Assembly (NCBI RefSeq): GCF_004010195.1
Contig: NC_057752.1
Span: 14,255,474-14,290,893, forward strand
Length of the DNA stretch: 35,420 nucleotides
Reading direction: 5' to 3'
Source of the DNA: Chiloscyllium plagiosum
Lineage: Eukaryota
A model generated the notes under the pieces. It was not told where the DNA came from. It did not search any database and saw only the letters and a program-made list of their open reading frames with translations. The stretch's first letter is position 1, and each line of letters begins with the position of its first letter. Below are positions 2,919 to 34,867 of the stretch, in pieces. A program made the translations under genes and the position numbers.

Positions 2919-2942
2919 AACTTGGCCTTGACAAATGAGAAG

Positions 2943-3207
2943 AGTCGAGAGTGTGGTGCTGGAAAAGCACAGCAGGTCAGGCAGCAGGAGAATCGATGTT
3001 TCGGACAGAAGCCCTTCATAAGGAATGCCACTCACCGGAACACAGATGACTACATCGGCAACGTCACTTCTGCCATCATTCCTGATGAAAGGCTTATGCC
3101 CGAAACATCGATTTTCCTGCTCCTCGGATGCTGCCTGACCCGCTGTGCTTTTCCAGCAACACACTCTCCACTCTGATCTCCAGCATCTGCAGCCCTCACT
3201 TTCTCCA
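2943..3207. mobile_element. Palindromic Penelope-derived element, family A (inverted pseudo-LTRs)
   Basis: Arms about 2943-3027 and 3077-3207 are reverse complements; degenerate TSD ccttgacaaatgagaag (2926-2942) / ccctgataaatgacaag (3208-3224). Confidence 0.8.
3082..3109 (+). ncRNA. Minimal hammerhead ribozyme motif, family A, degenerate
   Basis: CTGATGA-a-aggc-ttat-gccc-GAAA-c-atc; one helix II mismatch and ACGT changed to ACAT. Confidence 0.55.
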
Positions 3208-3980: not shown

Positions 3981-4231
3981 AGTTTTTTAAAAATATCAAT
4001 TGATGTTCGAATGCCGCCCGCTGTGATATTGGGATTTAAGTCTATGCCCATAAATTGTTAACCTGAGTTATTTGCCCACTGGCATTACCCTTGTGCCAGC
4101 TCTATCCAGAACATATGGTCAAACAGCAAAGAAACAACAAGGTCAGATCCACAAGGATGTGTGGGTGTTTCCTTCTCTTGAAAAGGGAAGGCTGAAGGAG
4201 GATCTTACAACACAAGATATCTCCATCAAGT

Positions 4232-4558
4232 GATTAGATTAGATTAGATTAGATTAGATTAGATTAGATTAATTACAGTGTGGAAACAGGCCCTTCGGCC
4301 CAAAAAGTCCACACCGACCCGCCGAAGCGTAACCCACCCAGACCCATTCCTCTACATTTACCCCTTCACCTAACACTACGGGCAATTTAGTATGGCCAAT
4401 TCACCTAACCTGCACATTTTTTGGATTGTGGGAGGAAACCGGAGCACCCGGAGGAAACCCACACAGACACAGGGAGAATGTGCAAACTCCACACAGAGAG
4501 TCACAGGTCTCAGGTGCTGTGAGGCAGCAGTGCTAACCACTGTGCCACCGTGCCGCCC
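4232..4558 (-). mobile_element. HE1-like tRNA-derived V-SINE with (TAATC)n tail
   Basis: Head gggcggcacggtggcacagtggttagcactg, core tgtggagtttgcacattctccc, CR1-derived tail, (GATTA)n on plus strand. Confidence 0.95.
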
Positions 4559-4559
4559 G

Positions 4560-4820
4560 CGATACGGGGAGACGGGGAGAATGTTTCCTCTTGGGAACAG
4601 CAGAACCAGAGGCCGTCAATAAAAGCGTCATTGACAAATCCCACCGGGAATTCAGAAGAACAATTTTCACCAGTGATTGGTTGCGGTGAATGGTAAAGAT
4701 GCATTTGATGGGAAACCAAAGGAGTTTGGGAGGTTTTTGTGGATTGGGTAAGATAAAAGAGGGAGAAGCAAAAACACCAGCATGGAGTGGTTTGGCCGCA
4801 TCATCTGTTTCTGTGTATGA
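4560..4820 (+). mobile_element. Old CR1 3' fragment (continues 4160-4230, split by the SINE)
   Basis: Diverged FSLEKGRLKEDL before the SINE and GRMFPLGNSRTRG after it. Confidence 0.5.
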
Positions 4821-5118
4821 CAGGATGGTAGAACCAAGGCTGGTCGATGGAGTTGGGATACAGTGTTCATATTGAATGGAGATAACAGGAAATTCTGAGG
4901 TAAAACATCAGAGGAATCGCTGATGTGAGAAGGGACTGGGCACTACCACCTTCTCCCTTATTCCTATGCCAGCAACAGTCTGCCTTAGACTAGCAGCCGT
5001 TGGTAATGCGGCTGGTCTCTGGCAGCCATGTTTATGGCCTGCTTTGCTCTTACTTTCTTGCAATCACTTGACAATCTTTCATTCTCAATGTCTCTATTGG
5101 ACTATAATCCCCAATAAA

Positions 5119-5555
5119 AGGTTTCACATATGAGGAACGTTTGAGGACTCTGGGACTACACTTGATGGAGTTTAGAAGGATGAGGGGGGATCGAACTTAC
5201 AGAATATTGAACGGCCTGGGCAGAGTGGATGTTGGAAAGATGCTTCCATTGGTAGGAGGGAAGAGGACCCAAGGGCACAGCCTTACAGTAGAGGGAAGAC
5301 CTTTTATATTGGAGATAAGGAGAAACGTCTTCAGCCAGACAGTGGGGAATCTATGGAATTCACTGCCACAGAAGGTTGCTGAGGCCAGGTCATTGAATAT
5401 ATTTAAGACTGAGATAGATAGGTTCTTGATTGCCAAGGGGATAAAAGGTTATGGGGATAAGGCAGCAAAATCGAGTTGAGAAACTAAGCCATGATGGAAT
5501 GGCGGAGCAGACTCAATAGGAGGAATGGCCTAATCTCTGCTCCTATGTCTTATGA
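5119..5555 (+). mobile_element. CR1 LINE 3' end
   Basis: ORF 5141-5479 (EFRRMRGD...WNSLPQKV...KGIKGYG) followed by 3'UTR. Confidence 0.9.
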
Positions 5556-5740
5556 GCATTGGCCAAGTCAAATGAGTCTTCAACCGGATTAATTTGCGCT
5601 CTGTCCTCCATCTGTAACCCAGCTCCGACAAGGAATATTCTTAAAAAAAAAGCCAAAGACGTGCAGAAATGTGAAACAGAAACAGAAATTGCTGGAGAAA
5701 CTCAGCAGGTCTGGCAGCATCTGTCGAGAGAGAAAGAGTT

Positions 5741-5770
5741 AATGTTTCAGGTCCAGTGAGCTATCTTCAG
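5741..5770 (-). ncRNA. Hammerhead motif, family C, degenerate
   Basis: agtt-CTGAAGA-tagctcactggacct-GAAA-c-att-aact; helix I agtt/aact pairs, helix II is damaged. Confidence 0.5.
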
Positions 5771-5805
5771 AACTGGTTGCGGCTGGGAAAATGTTGATAA
5801 ATATC

Positions 5806-6172
5806 ATAGAATCCCTACCATGTGGAAGCAAGCCAATCAGCCCATCGAGTCCATACTGACCCTCTCACCCTATCTCTGTAACCCCTGCATTTTCCCATGG
5901 CTAATCCACCTAGTCTGCACATCCCTGGGCACTATGGGGCAATTTAGCATGGCCAACCCACCCTAACCTGCACATCCCTGGGCACTATGGGACAATTTAG
6001 CATGGCCAATCCATCCTAACCTGCATATCATTGGACTGTGGGAGGAAACTGGAGCACCCAGAGGAAACCCACACAGACATGGGGAGAACATACAAACTCC
6101 ACACAGACAGGATCGAACCCGGGTCCCCGGCGCTGTGAGGCAGCAGTGCTAACCACTGAGCCACCGTGCCAC
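5806..6172 (-). mobile_element. HE1-like SINE with internal tandem duplication
   Basis: Head and core as in other copies; cacatccctgggcactatggg...catggccaa occurs twice (about 5918-6023). Confidence 0.9.
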
Positions 6173-6389
6173 CCCAGAGATGAACGATGGGTTGGGGGGA
6201 GGTGTAAGCGGTAAGTTAGAGATGGAGCCCAGGAGGAGACAACAGGAATCAGGCAGACATCGGAATGGGAAATGGTCGGTCTGGGAGAATCAGTCGCTGC
6301 CAATGGGGCCTATTCGTGACTGCCAGTGAGTGAAATGAGATTGGTGACTGTCATGGATACAGTTGCCTGACATTCAATGGTGGCACCAT

Positions 6390-7985
6390 GACCTGGTGGG
6401 GAATGGGAGATTCTCGCCCCATTCCCAGCTCATCATCCCCCATCCGCCTCCTCTTCACCATGGATATGCAATCCCTGGACACATCCATCCCCCGACAGGA
6501 TGGTCTCAGGACTCTCCGCTTCCTCCTGAATAAAGGCCCCGATTGTGCCTACCCACCACCAGCCTCCTCCACCTCGCCCTCAACACCTTCGCTTTTAACT
6601 CCTCTCATTTTCTTCAGGTCAGATGGGTGGCTGTGGGTACTCGCAATGGGCCCCAGTTCTTCCTGTCTCTTTGTGGGGCATGTGGAAGATTCCTTGTTCC
6701 AATCCTATTCCCCACCTACAACTCTTTCTCCGGTATATCAGTGATATCATCAGTGCTGCTTCCCTCGATCATCCGGAATTGGAGAAATTGATCAAGTTTG
6801 CATCCAATTTCCACCCCGCTCTCATCTGCACCATCTCTGCCTCCTCCCTTCCCTCCCTTGACATCCATGTTCCCATTTCTGGGGATAGGCCGGCCACCAA
6901 TATCCATTTCAAACCCATGGACTCCAACAGTTACCTTGACTATACATCCTCACACCCTGCTTCCTGTAAAGACTCTGTTCCATTCTTCCAGTTCCTCCAT
7001 CATCGCTGTTAGCAGACTTCTGAACGGCCCTCGCCTGTATTAGAGTTGATCTTTCTCTGCCCCTTCTCTGTAGCTGCAACACTGTATTCTGCATTCTGTT
7101 CTTTTATCCTGATACCTTATGCAAAGTATGATTCGTCTGACTAGGACGTAAAACAACATGTTTCACTGTATCTCGGTACATGTGGCAAGAATAAATCAAA
7201 TCAAATCAAAAATATCTAATCAAAAAAGTCTGTTTCACTGATGCCAACTTCAACAAGGGGAACCTCTGAAACGTCCACCTTCTTCCTCAGCCAAGGATTC
7301 CCCAGCACCAGAGCTGACAGGGCCCTCAGCCGGGTCTGACCCATCTCCTGCACTTCCTCCTCCACCCATCTCTTCCCTCCTGCAACAGTGATTGGGTGCC
7401 CCTTGTCCTTACCTACCGTCCCACCGACATCCACATTCAGAGGATCTTCAGCCACCATTTCCGCCACCTCCAGTGAGATGCTACCACCAGACAGGTATTC
7501 CCCTCCCCTCCCCTGCCTGCCTTCCGCAGAGACTGTTCCCTCCGGTCCACTCTACCTTCACTCCCAACGCCTCCCCTCCCCCACTGTGCCTTCCCCTGCA
7601 ACCACTGTAGGTGTAACACCTACCCACTGACTTCCTCCCTCCTCCGTATCCAAGGGCCCAAATCCACCCTCCAGGTGAGGCAGTGCACTTCCCACAATCT
7701 AGACTACTGCATTCACTGCTCACAATGTGCTCTCCTGTACGCTGGGGAAATGAAGCGTTGCCTGGGGAACCGGTTCGTAGAACACCGACGTTCTGTCCGC
7801 AATAAGAAACCGAGCTTCCAGTTACCTGCCACTTTAACACCCCACCCTGTTCCAGTGTCTCTGTCTCAGGCTTGCTGCAGTGCTCCAGTGAAGCTCCGTG
7901 CAAGCTGCAAGAACAGCACTTGCGTTTCCGCTCGGGAACCCTGCAATCTTCTGGACTCAATATCAAGTTCAGCAATTTTCAGGCT
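6390..7985 (+). mobile_element. Penelope-like retroelement ORF relic (reverse transcriptase plus GIY-YIG endonuclease), frameshifted
   Basis: LLFTMDMQSLDTSIP, HFLQVRWVAVGT (GxxMG), LFLRYISDI (YIDD), YLDYTSSHP; then CTSHNLDYCIHCSQCALLYAGEMKRCLGNRFVEH and EQHLRFRSGTLQSSGLN (GIY-YIG with Cys motif). Confidence 0.9.
7003..7225 (+). mobile_element. Rex1-type LINE 3' end inserted in the Penelope ORF
   Basis: AVSRLLN resembles the Rex1 ORF C-terminus; tail tttcactgtatctcggtacatgtggc, aataaa, (TCAAA)n. Confidence 0.65.
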
Positions 7986-7987
7986 TA

Positions 7988-8631
7988 CATAGAACCTGGA
8001 ACATTCCAGCGCAGTACAGGCCCTTCGACCCTCGATGTTGCACCGACCTGTGGAACCAATCTGAAGCCCATCTAACCTACACTATTCCACTTTCATCCAT
8101 ATGTCTATCCAATGACCATTTAAATGCCCTTAATGTTGGCGAGTCTACTACTGTTAGAGGCAGTGCATTCCACGCCCCTACTACTCTGAGTAAAGACGCT
8201 CCCTCTGACATCTGTCCTATATCTATCACCCCTCAGTTGAAAGCAACGTCCCCTTGTGCTAGCCATCGCCATCTGAGGAAAAAGGCTCTCCCTGCCCACC
8301 CTACCTAACCCTCTGATTATCTTATATGTCTCAATTAAGTCACCTCTCAACCTTCTTCTCTCTAACAAAAACAGCCTCAAGTCCCTCAGCCTTTCCTCGT
8401 AAGACCTTCCCTCCATACCAGGCAACATCCGAGTAAATCTCCTCTGCACCCTTTCCAAAGCTTCCACATCCTTCCTATAATGCGGTGACCAGGACTGTAC
8501 ACAATACTCCAAGTGCGGTCGCCCCAGCATTTTGTACAGCTGCAGCATGACCTGATGGTTCCAAACTCGATCCCTCTACCAATAAAAGCTAGCACACTGT
8601 ATGTCTCCTTAACAACCCTATCAACCTGGGT
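7988..8631 (-). mobile_element. CR1 LINE 3' part (continues at 9940-10205)
   Basis: ORF 8120-8548: LGRPHLEYCVQSWSP, LERVQRRFTRM. Confidence 0.92.
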
Positions 8632-8692
8632 TGAAAAGTGTGGTGTCGGAAAAGCACAGCAGGCCAGCCAGCATCCGAGGAGCAGGAGAATC

Positions 8693-8720
8693 GATGTTTC
8701 GGGCATAAGCCCTTCATCAG
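8693..8720 (-). ncRNA. Hammerhead motif, family A, core intact
   Basis: CTGATGA-a-gggc-ttat-gccc-GAAA-c-atc; only the helix III palindrome is altered (ACAT). Confidence 0.65.
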
Positions 8721-9826
8721 AACAGGAAGGCAGATTACTACCTAAATGGAATCAATTTAGGTAAAGGGGCAGTACAAAGATTAGATTAGATTAGATTAGA
8801 TTACCTACAGTGTGGAAACAGGCCCTTCGGCCCAACAAGTCCACACCGACCCGCCGAAGCGTATACCACCCAGACCCATACTCCTACACTTACCGCTTCA
8901 CCTAACACTACGGACAATTTAGCATGTTCAATTCACCTAACCTGCACATTTTTGGAGTGTGGGAGGAAACCGGAGCACCCGGAGGAAACCCACGCAGACA
9001 CGGGGAGAATGTGCAAACTCCACACAGTCAGTCGCCTGAGGCGGGAATTGAACCCGGGTCTCTGGCGCTGTGAGGCAGCAGTGCTAACCACTGTGCCACC
9101 GTGCCGCCAAAGAGATCTGGGTGTTCTTGTACACCAGTCAATGAAGGTAAGCATGCAGGTACAGCAGGTAGTGAAAAAGGCTAATAGCATGCTGGCCTTC
9201 ATAACAAGAGGGTTTGAGTATAGAATCAAAGAGGTTCTTCTGCAGCTGTACAGGGCCCTGGTGAGATCACACCTGGAGTATTGCGTGCAGTTCTGGTCTC
9301 CAAATTTGAGGAAAGACATTCTGGCTATTGAGGGAGTGCAACGTAGGTTCATGAGGTCAATTCCTGGAATGGCAGGATTACCTTACACTGAAAGACTGGA
9401 GCGGCTGGGCTTGTATACCCTTGAGTTTAGAAGACTGAGAGGGGATCTGATTGAGACATATAAGATTATTAAAGGATTGGACACTATAGAGGCAGGAAAC
9501 ATGTTTCCGCTGATGGGTGAGTCCCGAACCAGAGGACACAGCTTAAAAATACCGGGTAGACCATTTAGGACAGAGATGAGGAGAAACGTCTTCACCCAGA
9601 GAGTGGTGGCTGTGTGGAATGCTCTGCCCCAGAGGGTAGTGGAGGCCCAGTCTCTGGATTCATTTAAGAAAGAGATGGATAGAGCTCTCAAGGATAGTGG
9701 AAACAAGGGTTATGGAGATAAGGCAGGAACAGGATACTGATTAAGGATGATCAGCCATGATCATATTGAATGGTGGTGCAGGCTCGAAGGGCAGAATGGC
9801 CTACTCCTGCACCTATTGTCTATTGT
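8721..9826 (+). mobile_element. CR1 LINE 3' part, relatively young (about 210 codons open)
   Basis: 9108-9740 reads RDLGVLVHQS...LYRALVRSHLEYCVQFWSP...WNALP; 3'UTR ends ctattgtctattgt. Confidence 0.95.
8781..9107 (-). mobile_element. HE1-like SINE, full length
   Basis: tRNA-like head with A/B boxes, core, (GATTA)n; TSD caaaga at 8775-8780 and 9108-9113. Confidence 0.95.
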
Positions 9827-11123: not shown

Positions 11124-11152
11124 CTGATGAAGGAGCAGCACTCCGAAAGCTA
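11124..11152 (+). ncRNA. Minimal hammerhead ribozyme motif, family B, core intact
   Basis: cac-CTGATGA-a-ggag-cagca-ctcc-GAAA-gc-ta-gt; helix III palindrome AGCT, cleavage triplet CUA. Confidence 0.7.
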
Positions 11153-13387: not shown

Positions 13388-14456
13388 GTCATAGAGTTAT
13401 AGAGATGTACAGCACGCAAGCATACCATGCGGCCCAACTTGTCCATCCTAACCTTATCTAGTCCCATTTGCCAGCACCCGGCCCATATCCCTCTAACCCC
13501 TTCCTATTCATATACCCACCCAGATGCCTTTTAAATGTTGTAATTGTACCAGCCTCCACCACATCACCTGGCAGCTCATTCCATACACACACCACCCTCT
13601 GCGTGAGCAAGTTGCCCCTTGGGTCCGTTGTAAATCTTTCCTCTCTCACTTTCAGCCTATTCCCTCTAGTTCTGGACTCCCCCACTCTGGGGACAAGACT
13701 TTGTCTATTTATCCTATCCATGACCCTCATGATTTTATAAACCTCTATAAGGTCACTCCTCAGCCTCTGATGCTCCAGGGAAAACAGACCCAGCCTGTTC
13801 AGCCTCTCCCTATAGCTGTAACCCTCCAGCCCCAGCAAAGTCCTTGTAAATCTTGTCTGAACTCTTTCAAGTTTCACGACATCCTTCTGATAGGAAGGAG
13901 ACCAGAATTGCACACAACATTCCAAAAGTGGCCTAACCAATGTCCTGTACAGCCGCAACATGACCTCCTAACTCCTGTACTCAATACTCTGACCAATAAA
14001 GGAAAGCATACCAAACGCCTTCTTCACTATCCTATCTACCTGCACTTTCAAGGAGCTGGAGNNNNNNNNNNNNNNNNNNNNNNNNNNTGGTGTCATCTGC
14101 AAACTTACTAACTGTACCTCTTATGCTCACATCCAAATCATTTATGTAAATGACGAAAAGTAGAGGACCCAGCACTGATCCTTGTGGCACTCCACTGGTC
14201 ACAGGCCTCCAGTCTGAAAAACAACCTTCCACCACCACCCTCTGTCTTCTACCTTTGAGCCAGTTCTGTATCCAAATGGCTAGTTCTCCCTGTACTCCAT
14301 GAGATCTAACCTTGCTAATCAGTCTCCCATGGGGAACCCTGTCAAACACCTTAGTGAAGTCCATATGGATCACATCTACCACTCTGCCCTCATCAATCCT
14401 CTTTGTTACTTCTTCAAAAAACTCAATCAAGTTTGTGAGACATGATTTCCCACGCA
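13388..14456 (-). mobile_element. CR1 LINE RT domain and 3'UTR
   Basis: [56 protein letters not shown]. Confidence 0.97.
14062..14087. other. Assembly gap
   Basis: Run of N. Confidence 1.
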
Positions 14457-14627
14457 AAAAGTTATATATCGAAAGAAACTCTTACAGTCTTCCTCTATAT
14501 TACTGGCTAGCTTACCCTCATATTTAATCTTTTCCCACCTTATTTCTTTGTTGCTCTCTGTTGGTCTTTGTAGGCTTCCCAATCCTCTGGTTTCCCACTG
14601 CCCTTCGCCACATTATATGCTTTCTTT

Positions 14628-15264: not shown

Positions 15265-15812
15265 ATAGAAAATAAGGGTAAGTCCAGGCCGTTCAGCCCT
15301 GCTCTGCCACTCGTGGCTGATAAACTCTGTCCCATGTTCCCGCTTTCTCCCCCATGCCCTTTGATTCCTTTCGCCCTAAGAACTCTATCTAACTTCTTTT
15401 TAGAAACATTCAATGTTTTATCCACAACCCCTTTCTGTGGGCAGAGAATTCCACAGGATCCCCACTCTCTGGATGAAGACATTTCTCCTCAGCTCAGTCC
15501 GAAATGGCCTACCCTGTACCCTTAGACTTGAGGGAAAAAGTGAAGATTGCAGATGCTGGAGATCAGAGCTGAAAATGTGTTGCTGGAAAAGCGCAGCAGG
15601 TCAGGCAGCATCCAAGGAGCAGGAGAATCGATGTTTTGGGCATGAGCCCTTCTTCCTGAAGAAGGCCTCATGCCTGAAACATCGATTCTCCTGCTCCTTG
15701 GATGCTGCCTGACCTGCTGCGCTTTCCCAGCAACACATTTTCAGCCCTTAGACTTGAGCCCCAGTTCTGGGCTCCCTCACCAGCAGGAACATCCGTCCTG
15801 TGTTAACCCTGT
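15265..15812 (-). mobile_element. CR1 3' fragment interrupted by a Penelope palindrome
   Basis: LDRVLRAKGIKGHG and a CR1-type 3'UTR. Confidence 0.85.
15533..15744. mobile_element. Palindromic Penelope family A element with almost no spacer
   Basis: About 90 bp inverted arms centred near 15656; exact 14 bp TSD cccttagacttgag at 15519-15532 and 15745-15758; hammerhead relic at 15656-15683. Confidence 0.9.
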
Positions 15813-19657: not shown

Positions 19658-20014
19658 TGAGACTTGAACCTGATTCAGAGCTTGTGCCATAAGGGCCCTT
19701 CCCATGGTAAAGTGTGTCATTACATTTTTATGGAAATGCAAAAGGATCTCAAGGCTTTGGAGAGAGAGTGCAGTGGACATGTGCTGGAATGACACTTTCC
19801 TCCTTTCCTTCTTTTAGAAACAGTGGGGTAACATTAGCTAGCCTCCAATTTGTGCCAATTGCTCCAGAATTTTAGAAGGTGACCACAAATGTACCCATTA
19901 TTTCTCGGGCCACTTTCTTTAGCACTCTGTGATGCACATTATCAGGCCCTGGGGATTTATCAGCCTCCAATCCCATCAATTTCTCCAACACTATTTCTCT
20001 ATCAATGCAAATAC

Positions 20015-20457
20015 AGGGTTTGAGCTATAGGGAGAGGCTGAACAGGCTGGGGCTGTTTTCCCTGGAGTGTCAGAGGCTGAGGGGTGACCTTATAGAGGTT
20101 TATAACATCATGAGGGGCATGGATAGGGTAAATAGGCAAGGTCTTTTCCCCAGGGTAGGGGAGTCCAAAACTGGAGGGCATTGGTTTAGGGTGAGAGGGG
20201 AAAGATATGGAAGAAACCTAAGGGGCACCTTTTTCACACAGAGGGTGGTACATGTATGGCATGAGCTGCCAGAGAAAGTGGTGGAGGCTGGTACAATTGC
20301 AACATTTAAAAGGTGTCTGGATGAGTATATGAATAGGAAGGGTTTGGAGGGATATGGGCCAAACGCTGGCAAATGGGACGAGATCAATTTAGGATATCTT
20401 GTCGGCATGGACGGGTTGGACCGAAGACTCTGTTTTCCGTGCTGTACAACTCTGTGA
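20015..20457 (+). mobile_element. CR1 3' end
   Basis: SYRERLNRLGLFSLE...WHELPEKVV. An opposite-strand CR1-like fragment probably occupies 19810-20000. Confidence 0.92.
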
Positions 20458-23073: not shown

Positions 23074-23660
23074 TCCTATGGACCAGACCAAACTCCGTAC
23101 AAAGATATCAAGGAGTCAAGTGTGAGGTGTGTTCCAGATGTAATTCGATTGGTTACAGTACTTGGCTTGAGGCAAGACACACTTTATTCTTAACCTACTG
23201 TTAAAATCCAAGCAAAAGAAAGAAGGATTGATCTAACTTTGACTCTACTGGGAAACTTAACCGAATAATTGATTATTTATCAACTAAACAGTAACTGTTG
23301 CAATGTAATAACATCTCATTAACACATCCTTGGCAAAGGCAAAGATCTTAACATAGATGGCCTCACAAGCAATTCTCAAAGTAGGGAGAACTCCAGCTTT
23401 TAGCTGTAACAGAGGGAAAGAGAGAGAGAGAGACAGCGTCCACAGCCATCTTCAAATGCCCAACAATTGAATACTAAACTAAAACTCAGTTCTATTGGAG
23501 CCTGACTCCACCCAGTCAGGCTGCTTCTATTGTTCCAACTTTTAAAAAAATCCAAGGCCTCACAAGCTGTTTACTTTATTAGCTTGGAAGAGAGAGCTCA
23601 CCACCTCCAGCTCGAATCCTCTCTTTAAAATACACCTCTTAAGGCCACAGTATCGTCACA
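23074..23660 (-). mobile_element. Solo LTR (587 bp)
   Basis: Minus strand starts TGTGACG and ends ccatagga (decayed ...CA); AATAAA at 23183-23188 (minus); 5 bp TSD attac/actac with one mismatch. Confidence 0.65.
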
Positions 23661-23684
23661 ACTACCTGCACCCTCCATTTTCCA

Positions 23685-23880
23685 CCACAGAAGATTGTGG
23701 AGGCCAAGTCACTAAATATATTCAAGAAAAAGATCGCTAATTATTTGGCTTTTAAAGGTATCAAGAGATAGGAGGTGAAAGCAGGAAGATGGTGCTGTGA
23801 TACAAGATCAGCCATGATCGGATTGAATAACAGAGCAGACCCGAAGGGCCGACTGGCAAATCCTGCTCCCAGTTTCCATG
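23685..23880 (+). mobile_element. CR1 3' end
   Basis: ccacagaagattgtggaggccaagtca...gatcagccatgatc. Confidence 0.8.
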
Positions 23881-24162
23881 GCGTTGGATCGCCTGGAACT
23901 GGGACCTGAGGCTCTACAGATCTCCAGCTGAGCTCTCTTCAACACAATGGAGTTAGTTAATCAAGATTGGCATTAGTATGGGTTCCAGCCCTTATCTTCA
24001 AAAGCACCCGAGCCCTGTCATGGTATTTACATTGAATGCGATTGTAGCTAATAAGAAAGAAGATTTTAGCACTCACTGACAAGGTCACTTCCAGGGAATG
24101 GCATGTTAGCTGTGCCAATTGCCACCGATGGAACTCTGCCAGCTTTTCAATGAAACTGTGTG

Positions 24163-24262
24163 ATTCCTGAAGAAGGGCTCATGCCCGAAACGTCGATTCT
24201 CCTGCTCCTTGGATGCTGCCTGACCTGCTGCGCTTTTCCAGCAACACATTTTCAGCTCTGAT
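24163..24262 (+). mobile_element. Penelope family A solo terminal repeat
   Basis: Near-identical to the arms of 15533-15744; starts at the hammerhead. Confidence 0.85.
24167..24194 (+). ncRNA. Minimal type-I hammerhead ribozyme motif, family A, fully intact core
   Basis: CTGAAGA-a-gggc-tcat-gccc-GAAA-c-GTC; ACGT palindrome at helix III, GUC cleavage triplet; helix I weak (attc/gatt). Confidence 0.75.
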
Positions 24263-24717
24263 TCATGGGTGCCCCTTCATATGTTTGCAGTAGTTAGCAG
24301 GCCTGGAGACAGTGTCCAGCCAAATCTGGCAAGAAAGGGAAATCTCTCCCTCTTTCTCCTCGGCATTCCTGCATCTTATCACACAGCACGAAGAGGGATG
24401 CTGCTTCAAATCAACAGAGCTCTGTTTATGAGGGCTATTTTAATCAAGGTTATTACTGCTGTGTCTGGCAAATAGCTCAAGGGGTAATGCTTTCTTTTTC
24501 GTTTTGAGGAACAAAGCTGTTGTTTTTCTTTTTGAACACCCAAATCGTTCAAAGAATCTCAGGTTGTTTATGTGCGCTGTCAGCAACACAAGAAATAACA
24601 TTCTCCACTTCTCCACCACATCCCTTCCCCGGAGCAAATGTCTCTCCTGTGAAAACAATGCCCTTTGAAAACTCAGTGCCCGACGCTGCTCAGTGGGCAG
24701 AACCAGCTGGCATTTTT

Positions 24718-24952
24718 GTATTCCTTCGTGGGATGTGGGTGTCACTGGCTGGGCCCAGTATTTATTGCCCCGTCCCTAGTTACCCCCTTGAGAAGGTGGG
24801 GGTGAGCTGCCATCTTGAACCGCTGCAGTCCATGTGCTGTGGGTTGACCCACAATACCCTGAGGGTGGGAATTCCAGGATTTTGACCCAGTGACACTGAA
24901 AGAACGGTGATATTTTTCCAAGTCAGGACGGTGAGGGGCTTGCAAGGGAACA
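24718..24952 (-). mobile_element. Second LINE family 3' end
   Basis: Reverse complement of about 3760-3975. Confidence 0.85.
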
Positions 24953-25294
24953 TAAAGTCACAGAGAGAGTCATAGAATATGTACAGCCCAGAAAGAGGCC
25001 CTTTGGCCCATCGTATCTGTGCCAGTCCTCAGACATCTTTCTATTCTAATCCCAGTTTCCAGCACTTGGCCCATAGCCTTGTATACTATCACATTTGAAG
25101 CATTTATCTAAGTAGTTCTTCAACTTTATGAGGATGCCTGCTTCTGCAACCCTTACAGACTGTGAGTTCCACATTCCCACCACCCTCTGGGTGAAAAACT
25201 GTTTCTTCAAATCCCCCTCTCAACCACCTGAAAACTGTGCCCCCGATCCCTTGACTAAGGGTAAATGCTTCTTCCTATCTGACTTATTTAGATA

Positions 25295-25402
25295 TTTTCC
25301 TAATCATCCTGTTCAGAGATATTATTACACAGCCTGAAGCTGATGGGACTTGAATTGAGATATCCTAGCCCAGAGGTAGGGCCATTACCACTGCACTACA
25401 AG
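25295..25402 (-). mobile_element. Short tRNA-like SINE (family 3)
   Basis: Reverse complement gtagtgcagtggtaatggccctacctct...ttcaagtccc...atctctgaacag matches 17615-17852. Confidence 0.55.
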
Positions 25403-27504: not shown

Positions 27505-27628
27505 GTCCTGATGAAGGACTTATGCCCAAAACGTCGATTTTCCTGCTTCTCAGATGCTGCCTGACTGGCTGCGCTTTTCCAGCAACTCAGTTTCGACTCT
27601 GATCTCCAGCATCTGTGGTTGTCACTTC
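27505..27628 (+). mobile_element. Penelope family A terminal repeat with inactivated hammerhead (27508-27535)
   Basis: CTGATGA-a-ggac-ttat-gccc-AAAA-cgtc. Confidence 0.8.
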
Positions 27629-29162: not shown

Positions 29163-29350
29163 CGAGAGTGTGGTGCTGGAAAAACACAGCCGGTCAGGCA
29201 GCATCTGAGGAGCAGGAGAGTTGACGTTTCGGGCAAAAGCCCGAATGATGAAACGTCGCTTCTCCTGCTCCTCGGATGCCGCCCGACCTGCTGTGCTTTG
29301 TCAGCACCACACTCTCGACTCTGACCTCCAGCGTCTGCAGTCCTCACTGC
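29163..29350. mobile_element. Palindromic Penelope family A element, centre deleted
   Basis: Inverted arms 29163-29242 and 29250-29350; both lack CTGANGA. Confidence 0.85.
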
Positions 29351-34636: not shown

Positions 34637-34867
34637 GATGTGGAGGAGCCGGGGTTGGACTGGGGTGGACAAAGTTAAAAATCACACCACACCAGGTTCT
34701 AGTCCAACAGGTTTATTTGGAAGGACTAGCTTTCAGAGCGCTGCTCCTTCATCAGGTACCTCGTCACTCGCTGCTCCTCCGTCACTAGCTAGGAGGAGCA
34801 GCGCTCTGAAAGCTAGTGCTTCCAAATGAACCTGTTGGACTCGAACCTGGTACTGTGTGATTTTTAA
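34637..34867. mobile_element. Palindromic Penelope family B element
   Basis: Arms about 34676-34756 and 34794-34867 are inverted; about 40 nt extra tail on the left arm only. Confidence 0.8.
34727..34755 (-). ncRNA. Hammerhead motif, family B, core intact
   Basis: CTGATGA-a-ggagc-agc-gctct-GAAA-gc-ta; the first helix II pair is G-U. Confidence 0.65.

Follow-up and report, generated by a model that had tools for sequence, protein, structure and literature searches.

The analysed stretch of Chiloscyllium plagiosum contig NC_057752.1 (35,420 nucleotides, hereafter the window) carries on its forward strand a 100-bp retroelement stub without the optional 30-nt tail, and the first 36 nucleotides of this stub form a minimal type-I hammerhead motif. 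We number the element from A24163 (+1), so that the predicted cut falls between +32 and +33. The features of the site, all on the plus strand, are the following.

24161-24166, plus: TGATTC, found again at 24259-24264, a possible 6-bp target-site duplication (TSD) with microhomology
24163-24262, plus (+1 to +100): 5'-truncated solo 3'-end (pLTR) stub of a Penelope-like retroelement, probably of Neptune type, identified by its matches to long copies and tandem elements
24163-24198, plus (+1 to +36): minimal type-I hammerhead motif, recognised from its sequence, the strict scan and cross-family covariation
24163-24166, plus: helix I, 5' strand ATTC; the 5' ends of short copies cluster at its first A, the putative transcription start
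24167-24173, plus: core CTGAAGA (C3-U4-G5-A6-N7-G8-A9)
24174, plus: extra A between A9 and helix II
24175-24178 and 24183-24186, plus: helix II, 4 bp, GGGC/GCCC, with the 4-nt loop TCAT
24175 with 24186, plus: closing pair of helix II, G10.1-C11.1 (G24175-C24186)
24187-24190, plus: GAAA (G12-A13-A14-A15.1)
24190-24193, plus: loopless palindromic helix III, ACGT
24191 and 24192-24194, plus: C followed by the GTC triplet, with the predicted cut after C24194
24195-24198, plus: helix I, 3' strand GATT, forming 3 of 4 pairs in this copy

The conserved boxes CUGANGA, GAAA and NUH are all present, as are both the extra nucleotide between 9 and 10.1 and the G10.1-C11.1 pair. The initial annotation, which had described a complete hammerhead core, a 4-bp helix II, an extra A, the ACGT palindrome and a GUC triplet, is exact for 24163-24198. 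Helix I of the window copy has three of its four pairs and one U.U mismatch, with all four pairs formed in a sister subfamily (L051). A second palindrome, TCGA, at +31 to +34 (24193-24196) overlaps the cleavage site.

A strict minimal-hammerhead scan found 79 matches in 1,147,699 genome bases (120 stretches of 10 kb from the 35 largest contigs, set at round coordinates and blind to the family) and three more in the window, against none in each of five shuffles, so the window motif is not a product of chance. A loose hammerhead pattern matched the window 28 times, compared with a shuffle mean of 9. An Rfam scan of the window returned no hammerhead family at E<=10, and the motif does not have the canonical features of the Rfam type, a 6-bp helix I and a looped helix III. 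Minimum free energy folding of 24155-24265 does not improve on that of shuffles (z 0.61), as is to be expected where the motif has no helix III. Eleven copies of the ACGT-motif family lie in the window, and the full core together with the helix pairs is found in the 24163 copy alone, the cores of the other ten being CpG-decayed or truncated. The claim that this is the best-preserved copy in the window is correct within its own family. A second family has a copy at 11124 that also shows a full core, but a helix I of just 2 bp. Hammerheads of this second Penelope-like family occupy 11124-11152 (plus) and 34727-34755 (minus), with the palindrome AGCT and the triplet CUA, and the copy at 11124 has TATAAG 40 nt before C3.

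The rest of the window is rich in related remains. Head-to-head inverted pairs of the same family as 24163 lie at 15562-15748, 29169-29324 and 2941-3177; weak and spurious Rfam matches to miRNA precursors at 15602-15710 and 29200-29279 both fall within such pairs. Decayed reverse transcriptase (RT) and GIY-YIG remains at 6448-7982 (plus) belong to an older Penelope-like element, 5689-5770 (minus) is a decayed hammerhead stub of a further family with helix I AGTT/AACT, and 2124-2206 is a tRNA-like SINE head with a weak tRNA-Sec match in Rfam. The open reading frames (ORFs) at 725-1469, 5108-5479, 8120-9740, 13458-14481 and 19933-20457 we take to be 3' fragments of CR1/L2-like LINEs, and the list of ORFs in the window contains no evident host gene.

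A link to Penelope-like elements (PLEs) had been proposed for the motif, and it is borne out by the RT, the GIY-YIG endonuclease, tandem pLTRs, a tail and inverted copies. In long copies the endonuclease lies upstream of the hammerhead, its stop codon 190 nt before C3, with a Pfam match (E 0.004) that is under Pfam's gathering score. The RT matches PF00078 with E 1e-9, and the tblastn order in L201-L203 places GIY-YIG C-terminal to it. A CX4CxxC linker between RT and endonuclease in L148, L159 and L164 is the one sequence feature that points to the Neptune/Nematis type. There are 25 protein homologues, the best named of which are uncharacterised proteins of carpet sharks and skates. L202, L201 and L203 are partial tandems, pLTR-ORF-pLTR, of about 3.16 kb with hammerhead repeats at the ends, some of them partly deleted; L203 has an inverted 5' copy as well. 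Full elements carry the hammerhead both behind the GIY-YIG stop and before the RT reading frame, about 3.16 kb apart. The 3' ends of 181 random family copies fall mostly into two classes, 77 at +85 to +102 and 87 at +128 to +135, measured on references that ended at +135, and head-to-head inverted pairs make up 32 of 149 insertion events. Extrapolation from 181 matches per 1.148 Mb gives about 5x10^5 copies of the family, and the 32-mer +1 to +32 has 5,365 exact occurrences in the genome. Taken as a whole, we put at roughly 80% the reading that the motif is the minimal hammerhead from the terminal repeat of a high-copy Penelope-like retroelement and sits here on a young and likely inert 100-bp solo stub.

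Twelve natural representatives from five families keep the hammerhead fold with differing letters. The first helix I pair varies between C-G, U-A and A-U, the helix III pair 15.2-16.2 is C-G or G-C, and positions 3-8 are C-G or U-A, a swap to U-A that is also reported for Schistosoma; PLE protein remains lie upstream in at least one copy of each of the five families. The initial annotation had singled out preferential conservation of the core as a point on which the motif could fail, and here stems and core covary across five PLE-linked families. Since the stems covary in this way, the source elements must have been under selection for the ribozyme. Among 82 long copies chosen through an anchor further upstream, and so blind to the motif, all variants together amount to 1.3% at the core against about 5% elsewhere (p 3e-8); rare variants are also lower at the core (7/795 versus 111/6794), a difference that is not significant (p 0.13). 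A first comparison of core and remainder (p 0.02) was set aside, since mismatches close to the 5' end are lost in local alignments. Once inserted, copies lose core bases at CpG rates, in neutral decay: among the same 82, the rate of change at CpG sites is 12.5%, 14 copies have A for the catalytic G12, and 27 retain an intact core. The window copy is intact because it is young. It departs from the subfamily majority at two subfamily-diagnostic sites only, is one of the 5,365 exact 32-mers and is a promoter-less solo, so nothing sets it apart as a special copy. Elsewhere in the genome sample, L023 (minus, 2384) and L040 (plus, 4825) represent a PLE family with the U3-A8 core swap, a helix I in which all 4 bp are formed and, upstream, a canonical TATAAA. 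L179, L082, L232 and similar copies have a helix II of 6-7 bp, U or C as the extra base behind A9 and, upstream, an endonuclease of different architecture; these families we presume to be possibly of Poseidon type.

Where do the copies begin? For the boundary statistics, copies were collected with the segment 3' of the cleavage site only and aligned to 33 long copies, with inverted arms merged; 20 of 201 matches were dropped as belonging to other families or too weak, and the 30 best matches of one search were kept out since the query had selected their upstream bases. Of the resulting 149 events, 80 start in -8 to +12 (3.2% per nt) and 4 in -47 to -9 (0.23% per nt). A further 14 start in +13 to +29, three in +30 to +36 and seven beyond, while 41 extend past -47 or are censored by N. 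No insertion among the 149 starts at the cleavage site (+33). The young subfamilies (n=58) repeat the pattern, with 37 events in -8 to +12, one each in -47 to -9 and +13 to +29, none in +30 to +36, two beyond and 17 long or censored. The second family behaves alike: among 45 events, 16 start from 10 nt before to 1 nt after C3, seven a little before that (in part through chance similarity to the inverted arm) and six further in, 16 are long, and none starts at the cleavage site. In reads of run X19, 134 break off exactly at +1; these breaks mirror the genomic boundary and are not a measurement of the start site. A splice acceptor at the 5' boundary was considered and ruled out, the native bases before +1 being TC and not AG.

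The base in front of the boundary is also skewed. Before the exact 32-mer, genome-wide, the native C is found 3,762 times, G 983, A 469 and T 151, while in a control one base later G is found 219 and T 458 times. The G excess is partly templated by fold-back arms. Among the first 40 G copies on C1 an inverted arm is present in 22 and templates the G in 10; among the first 30 A copies the corresponding numbers are 16 and 11. A solo-only estimate leaves about 440 G, about 220 A and at most 151 T, where 26% G would be expected from composition. Extra bases between the TSD and +1 were tried as a discriminator and dropped, as they occur in G and A copies alike (8 of 10 G solos and 6 of 7 A solos that bear a TSD). 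In the window copy itself, with TGATTC on both sides of the stub, G24162 may be target DNA rather than a copied cap.

At and upstream of the boundary, all 33 long copies have the native sequence Y-A+1, and 30 of the 33 have a TTATCT-like hexamer beginning at -29 to -32, with the caveat that clustering on upstream similarity favoured its discovery. This -30 motif of the ACGT-motif family is not a canonical TATA box, and the short copies do not have it. In the second family TATAAA or TATAAG starts 35-40 nt before C3 in at least 20 of 79 copies, and in a third family TATAAA lies 37 nt before U3. Five of 70 sampled copies carry, immediately before +1, a piece from the 5' end of the ORF, so in these cases the template continued into the ORF. 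We lean somewhat towards transcription of tandem elements starting at the first base of helix I. That the hot spot is about 20 nt wide and not one base counts against such a start site. In Drosophila virilis the Penelope element has a TATA-less internal promoter and an intron before the hammerhead, so the layout of promoter and hammerhead is not universal.

If transcription does start there, the hammerhead would be the first 36 nt of a capped mRNA, with an initiator overlapping helix I. The stubs, hundreds of thousands of them, would then preserve a record of where transcription began, the additional G being a copy of the cap, and practically none of them would stem from cleaved RNA; the ribozyme would be a switch removing the cap-bearing 32-nt leader, and so decapping the RNA or stopping its translation or its use as a template, and not a maker of templates. 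To this fuller model we give an even chance. In the start-site reading itself, towards which we lean, transcription of a tandem element would be driven from the preceding repeat, by a TATA-like box some 30 nt before the start; the RT would begin inside the template, at about +100 or about +130, which matches the two 3'-end classes and the published mechanism of PAc, the Anolis Poseidon element. The RT would copy uncleaved RNA back to the capped 5' end, where it would often add a G, fold back or jump template, with short stubs like the window copy, head-to-head pairs and short tandems as the outcome. The ribozyme would act only on the element's own mRNA, slowly, as a terminal-repeat dimer or with the element's protein; its cleavage would remove the leader of about 32 nt, and the cleaved RNA would apparently not serve as an insertion template. 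There are precedents in the available texts of two studies: for LINE-1, an untemplated 5' G with a pyrimidine/purine initiator was read as a copied cap (PMC9341517), and for PAc, the RT was shown in vitro to start internally and unprocessed RNA was reported to be its main substrate (PMC11167929).

The hot spot could instead have arisen from stalling of the RT, from fold-back at the TTC-CT-GAA hairpin or from trimming by the endonuclease at ATT, with no transcription start involved, and the scatter of 5' ends over about 20 nt speaks for this explanation. Many inverted junctions overlap by 2-3 nt at that hairpin, and the PAc endonuclease prefers 5'-ATT-3' in the available text (PMC11167929). However, solo copies also pile up, 35 of 117 solo events lying in -10 to +3, and a stall at helix II predicts ends at +13 to +29, where only 1 of 56 events is found. 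The hot spot of the second family is without ATT, yet has a canonical TATA box upstream, and the excess of G is specific to +1. We consider such an origin of the boundary unlikely, though clearly worth keeping in mind.

There is much less to be said for the 100-130-bp unit being an independent non-autonomous element, SINE-like or a retrozyme, that spreads from short masters. Most copies are indeed short, only the 41 of 149 events reaching past -47 or being censored, and short head-to-tail pairs exist (L296, L274, L264). Against this, several subfamilies and the second family have one and the same boundary, the -30 motif is absent from short copies, the site has no tandem array, and the ORF pieces joined to +1 indicate a template that ran into the ORF, which together make such a unit very improbable.

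Least probable is an active ribozyme in the window copy itself, cutting host read-through RNA in trans with other transcribed copies: its core is intact, the genomic flank offers two extra helix I pairs and run X19 contains plenty of family reads in either orientation, so that potential partners would be available, but the unique flanks have no reads, an intact same-strand partner is far away, the modelled energies favour a non-catalytic dimer, and published relatives are poor cutters. The evidence behind this is as follows. The copy is solo and lacks the promoter-like region upstream. On the same strand, the closest copies of the family, at 27508 and 15656, have broken cores; the window holds no intact same-strand partner, and across the 10-kb flanks the closest one lies about 31 kb upstream. 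In a sample of about 2% of run X19, 373 reads, in both orientations, fall on repeats in 23300-25300, each of them aligned partly, and the unique flanks within 23300-25300 have 0 reads in this one shallow sample. Neither 23300-25300 nor the tandem L202 shows piles of read starts or ends in the same sample. Read depth over L202 is about 1,200 over +1 to +130 and about 1 over the ORF part, so the motif-bearing RNA is likely mostly read-through of dispersed stubs. With nearest-neighbour energies, which leave tertiary contacts aside, the double-hammerhead dimer comes to -9.3 to -15.3 kcal/mol versus -21.9 to -24.1 kcal/mol for a non-catalytic dimer, which in the model pairs through the UCGA palindrome overlapping the cleavage site. 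Minimal hammerheads in the literature are inactive as monomers and weak as dimers, one of nine Xenopus minimal hammerhead dimers having cut. According to the available text on PAc, its ribozyme cut only with its protein (PMC11167929). The lone window copy is likely inert. Short head-to-tail tandems elsewhere, L296, L274 and L264, each carry two hammerheads on one strand, at distances of 242, 195 and 46 nt, and are candidates for cis-dimers.

Returning to a start site at the first base of helix I, what would it mean for the ribozyme? Two papers, in the text available, describe the function of PLE hammerheads as unclear (PMC8557442, PMC11167929). The copy number in the shark allows a count-based test of which RNA gets copied, 0 of 149 at the cleavage site versus 80 of 149 around +1, and the piling up of insertions at the first base of helix I, with none at the cleavage site, is possibly new. 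Should the start site be confirmed, the counts would indicate that uncleaved RNA serves as the template in vivo and would point to a specific function for the ribozyme at the 5' cap, one that can be put to the test. A literature search over titles and abstracts, in a collection with few subscription papers and not all supplements, returned no shark PLE hammerhead and no link between such a hammerhead and a TATA box or start site.

The comparisons that follow refer to the available text of each source. Several known systems share parts of this arrangement. Non-LTR retrozymes (Cervera and De la Pena, 2020, PMC7229834; Li et al., 2026, bioRxiv 10.64898/2026.07.22.740005) likewise have a type-I hammerhead, are PLE-related and depend on dimers, but they form tandem arrays, whereas the window copy is a dispersed solo at a site without a tandem repeat. 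The pLTRs of Adineta vaga (Arkhipova et al., 2013, PMC3846280) similarly contain a putative TATA box and initiator, and their palindromic head-to-head junctions, explained there by self-priming, resemble the inverted pairs of the shark; that paper, which appeared before the hammerhead was described, proposes an antisense template, while the shark pairs would be accounted for by the cDNA folding back where it reaches the 5' end of the RNA. PAc (Frangieh et al., 2024, PMC11167929) has two internal RT start sites that define the tail, a hammerhead at the pLTR-ORF junction and insertion of unprocessed RNA; the shark element shares the position of the hammerhead and probably also the RT starts and the template. 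Its ORF starts in stem II, whereas translations of L189 and L202 suggest that the shark start codon likely lies behind the tail, and neither a 5'-end hot spot nor an extra G is described for PAc in the text available. With the Neptune/Nematis endonuclease-positive (EN+) PLEs (Craig et al., 2021, PMC8557442) the shark element shares the order of RT and C-terminal GIY-YIG and the Zn-finger-like linker, CX2-5CxxC in that class, as well as partial tandems, an inverted 5' copy and a 30-40-bp tail.

The closest likeness is to the minimal hammerheads in the pLTRs of metazoan PLEs described in 2014 (Cervera and De la Pena, PMC4209133). The core boxes, the extra base between 9 and 10.1, the G10.1-C11.1 pair and the palindromic loopless 15.2-16.2 are the same, and helix I, 4-5 bp in that class, is likewise short, with 3 of 4 pairs in the window copy and 4 of 4 in the sister subfamily; as there, copies are mostly solo or in opposite-strand pairs, and the U3-A8 variant is also found in the shark genome. 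Helix II has 4 bp in the shark as opposed to 7-8 bp in Schistosoma, and strict motifs extrapolate to about 2x10^5 in the shark versus 4,000-9,000 in coelacanth and Xenopus, counts obtained with differing descriptors. The available text does not put the minimal hammerhead at the transcription start, and one of the paper's two supplements contains no shark term. The window motif is another host lineage for this class.
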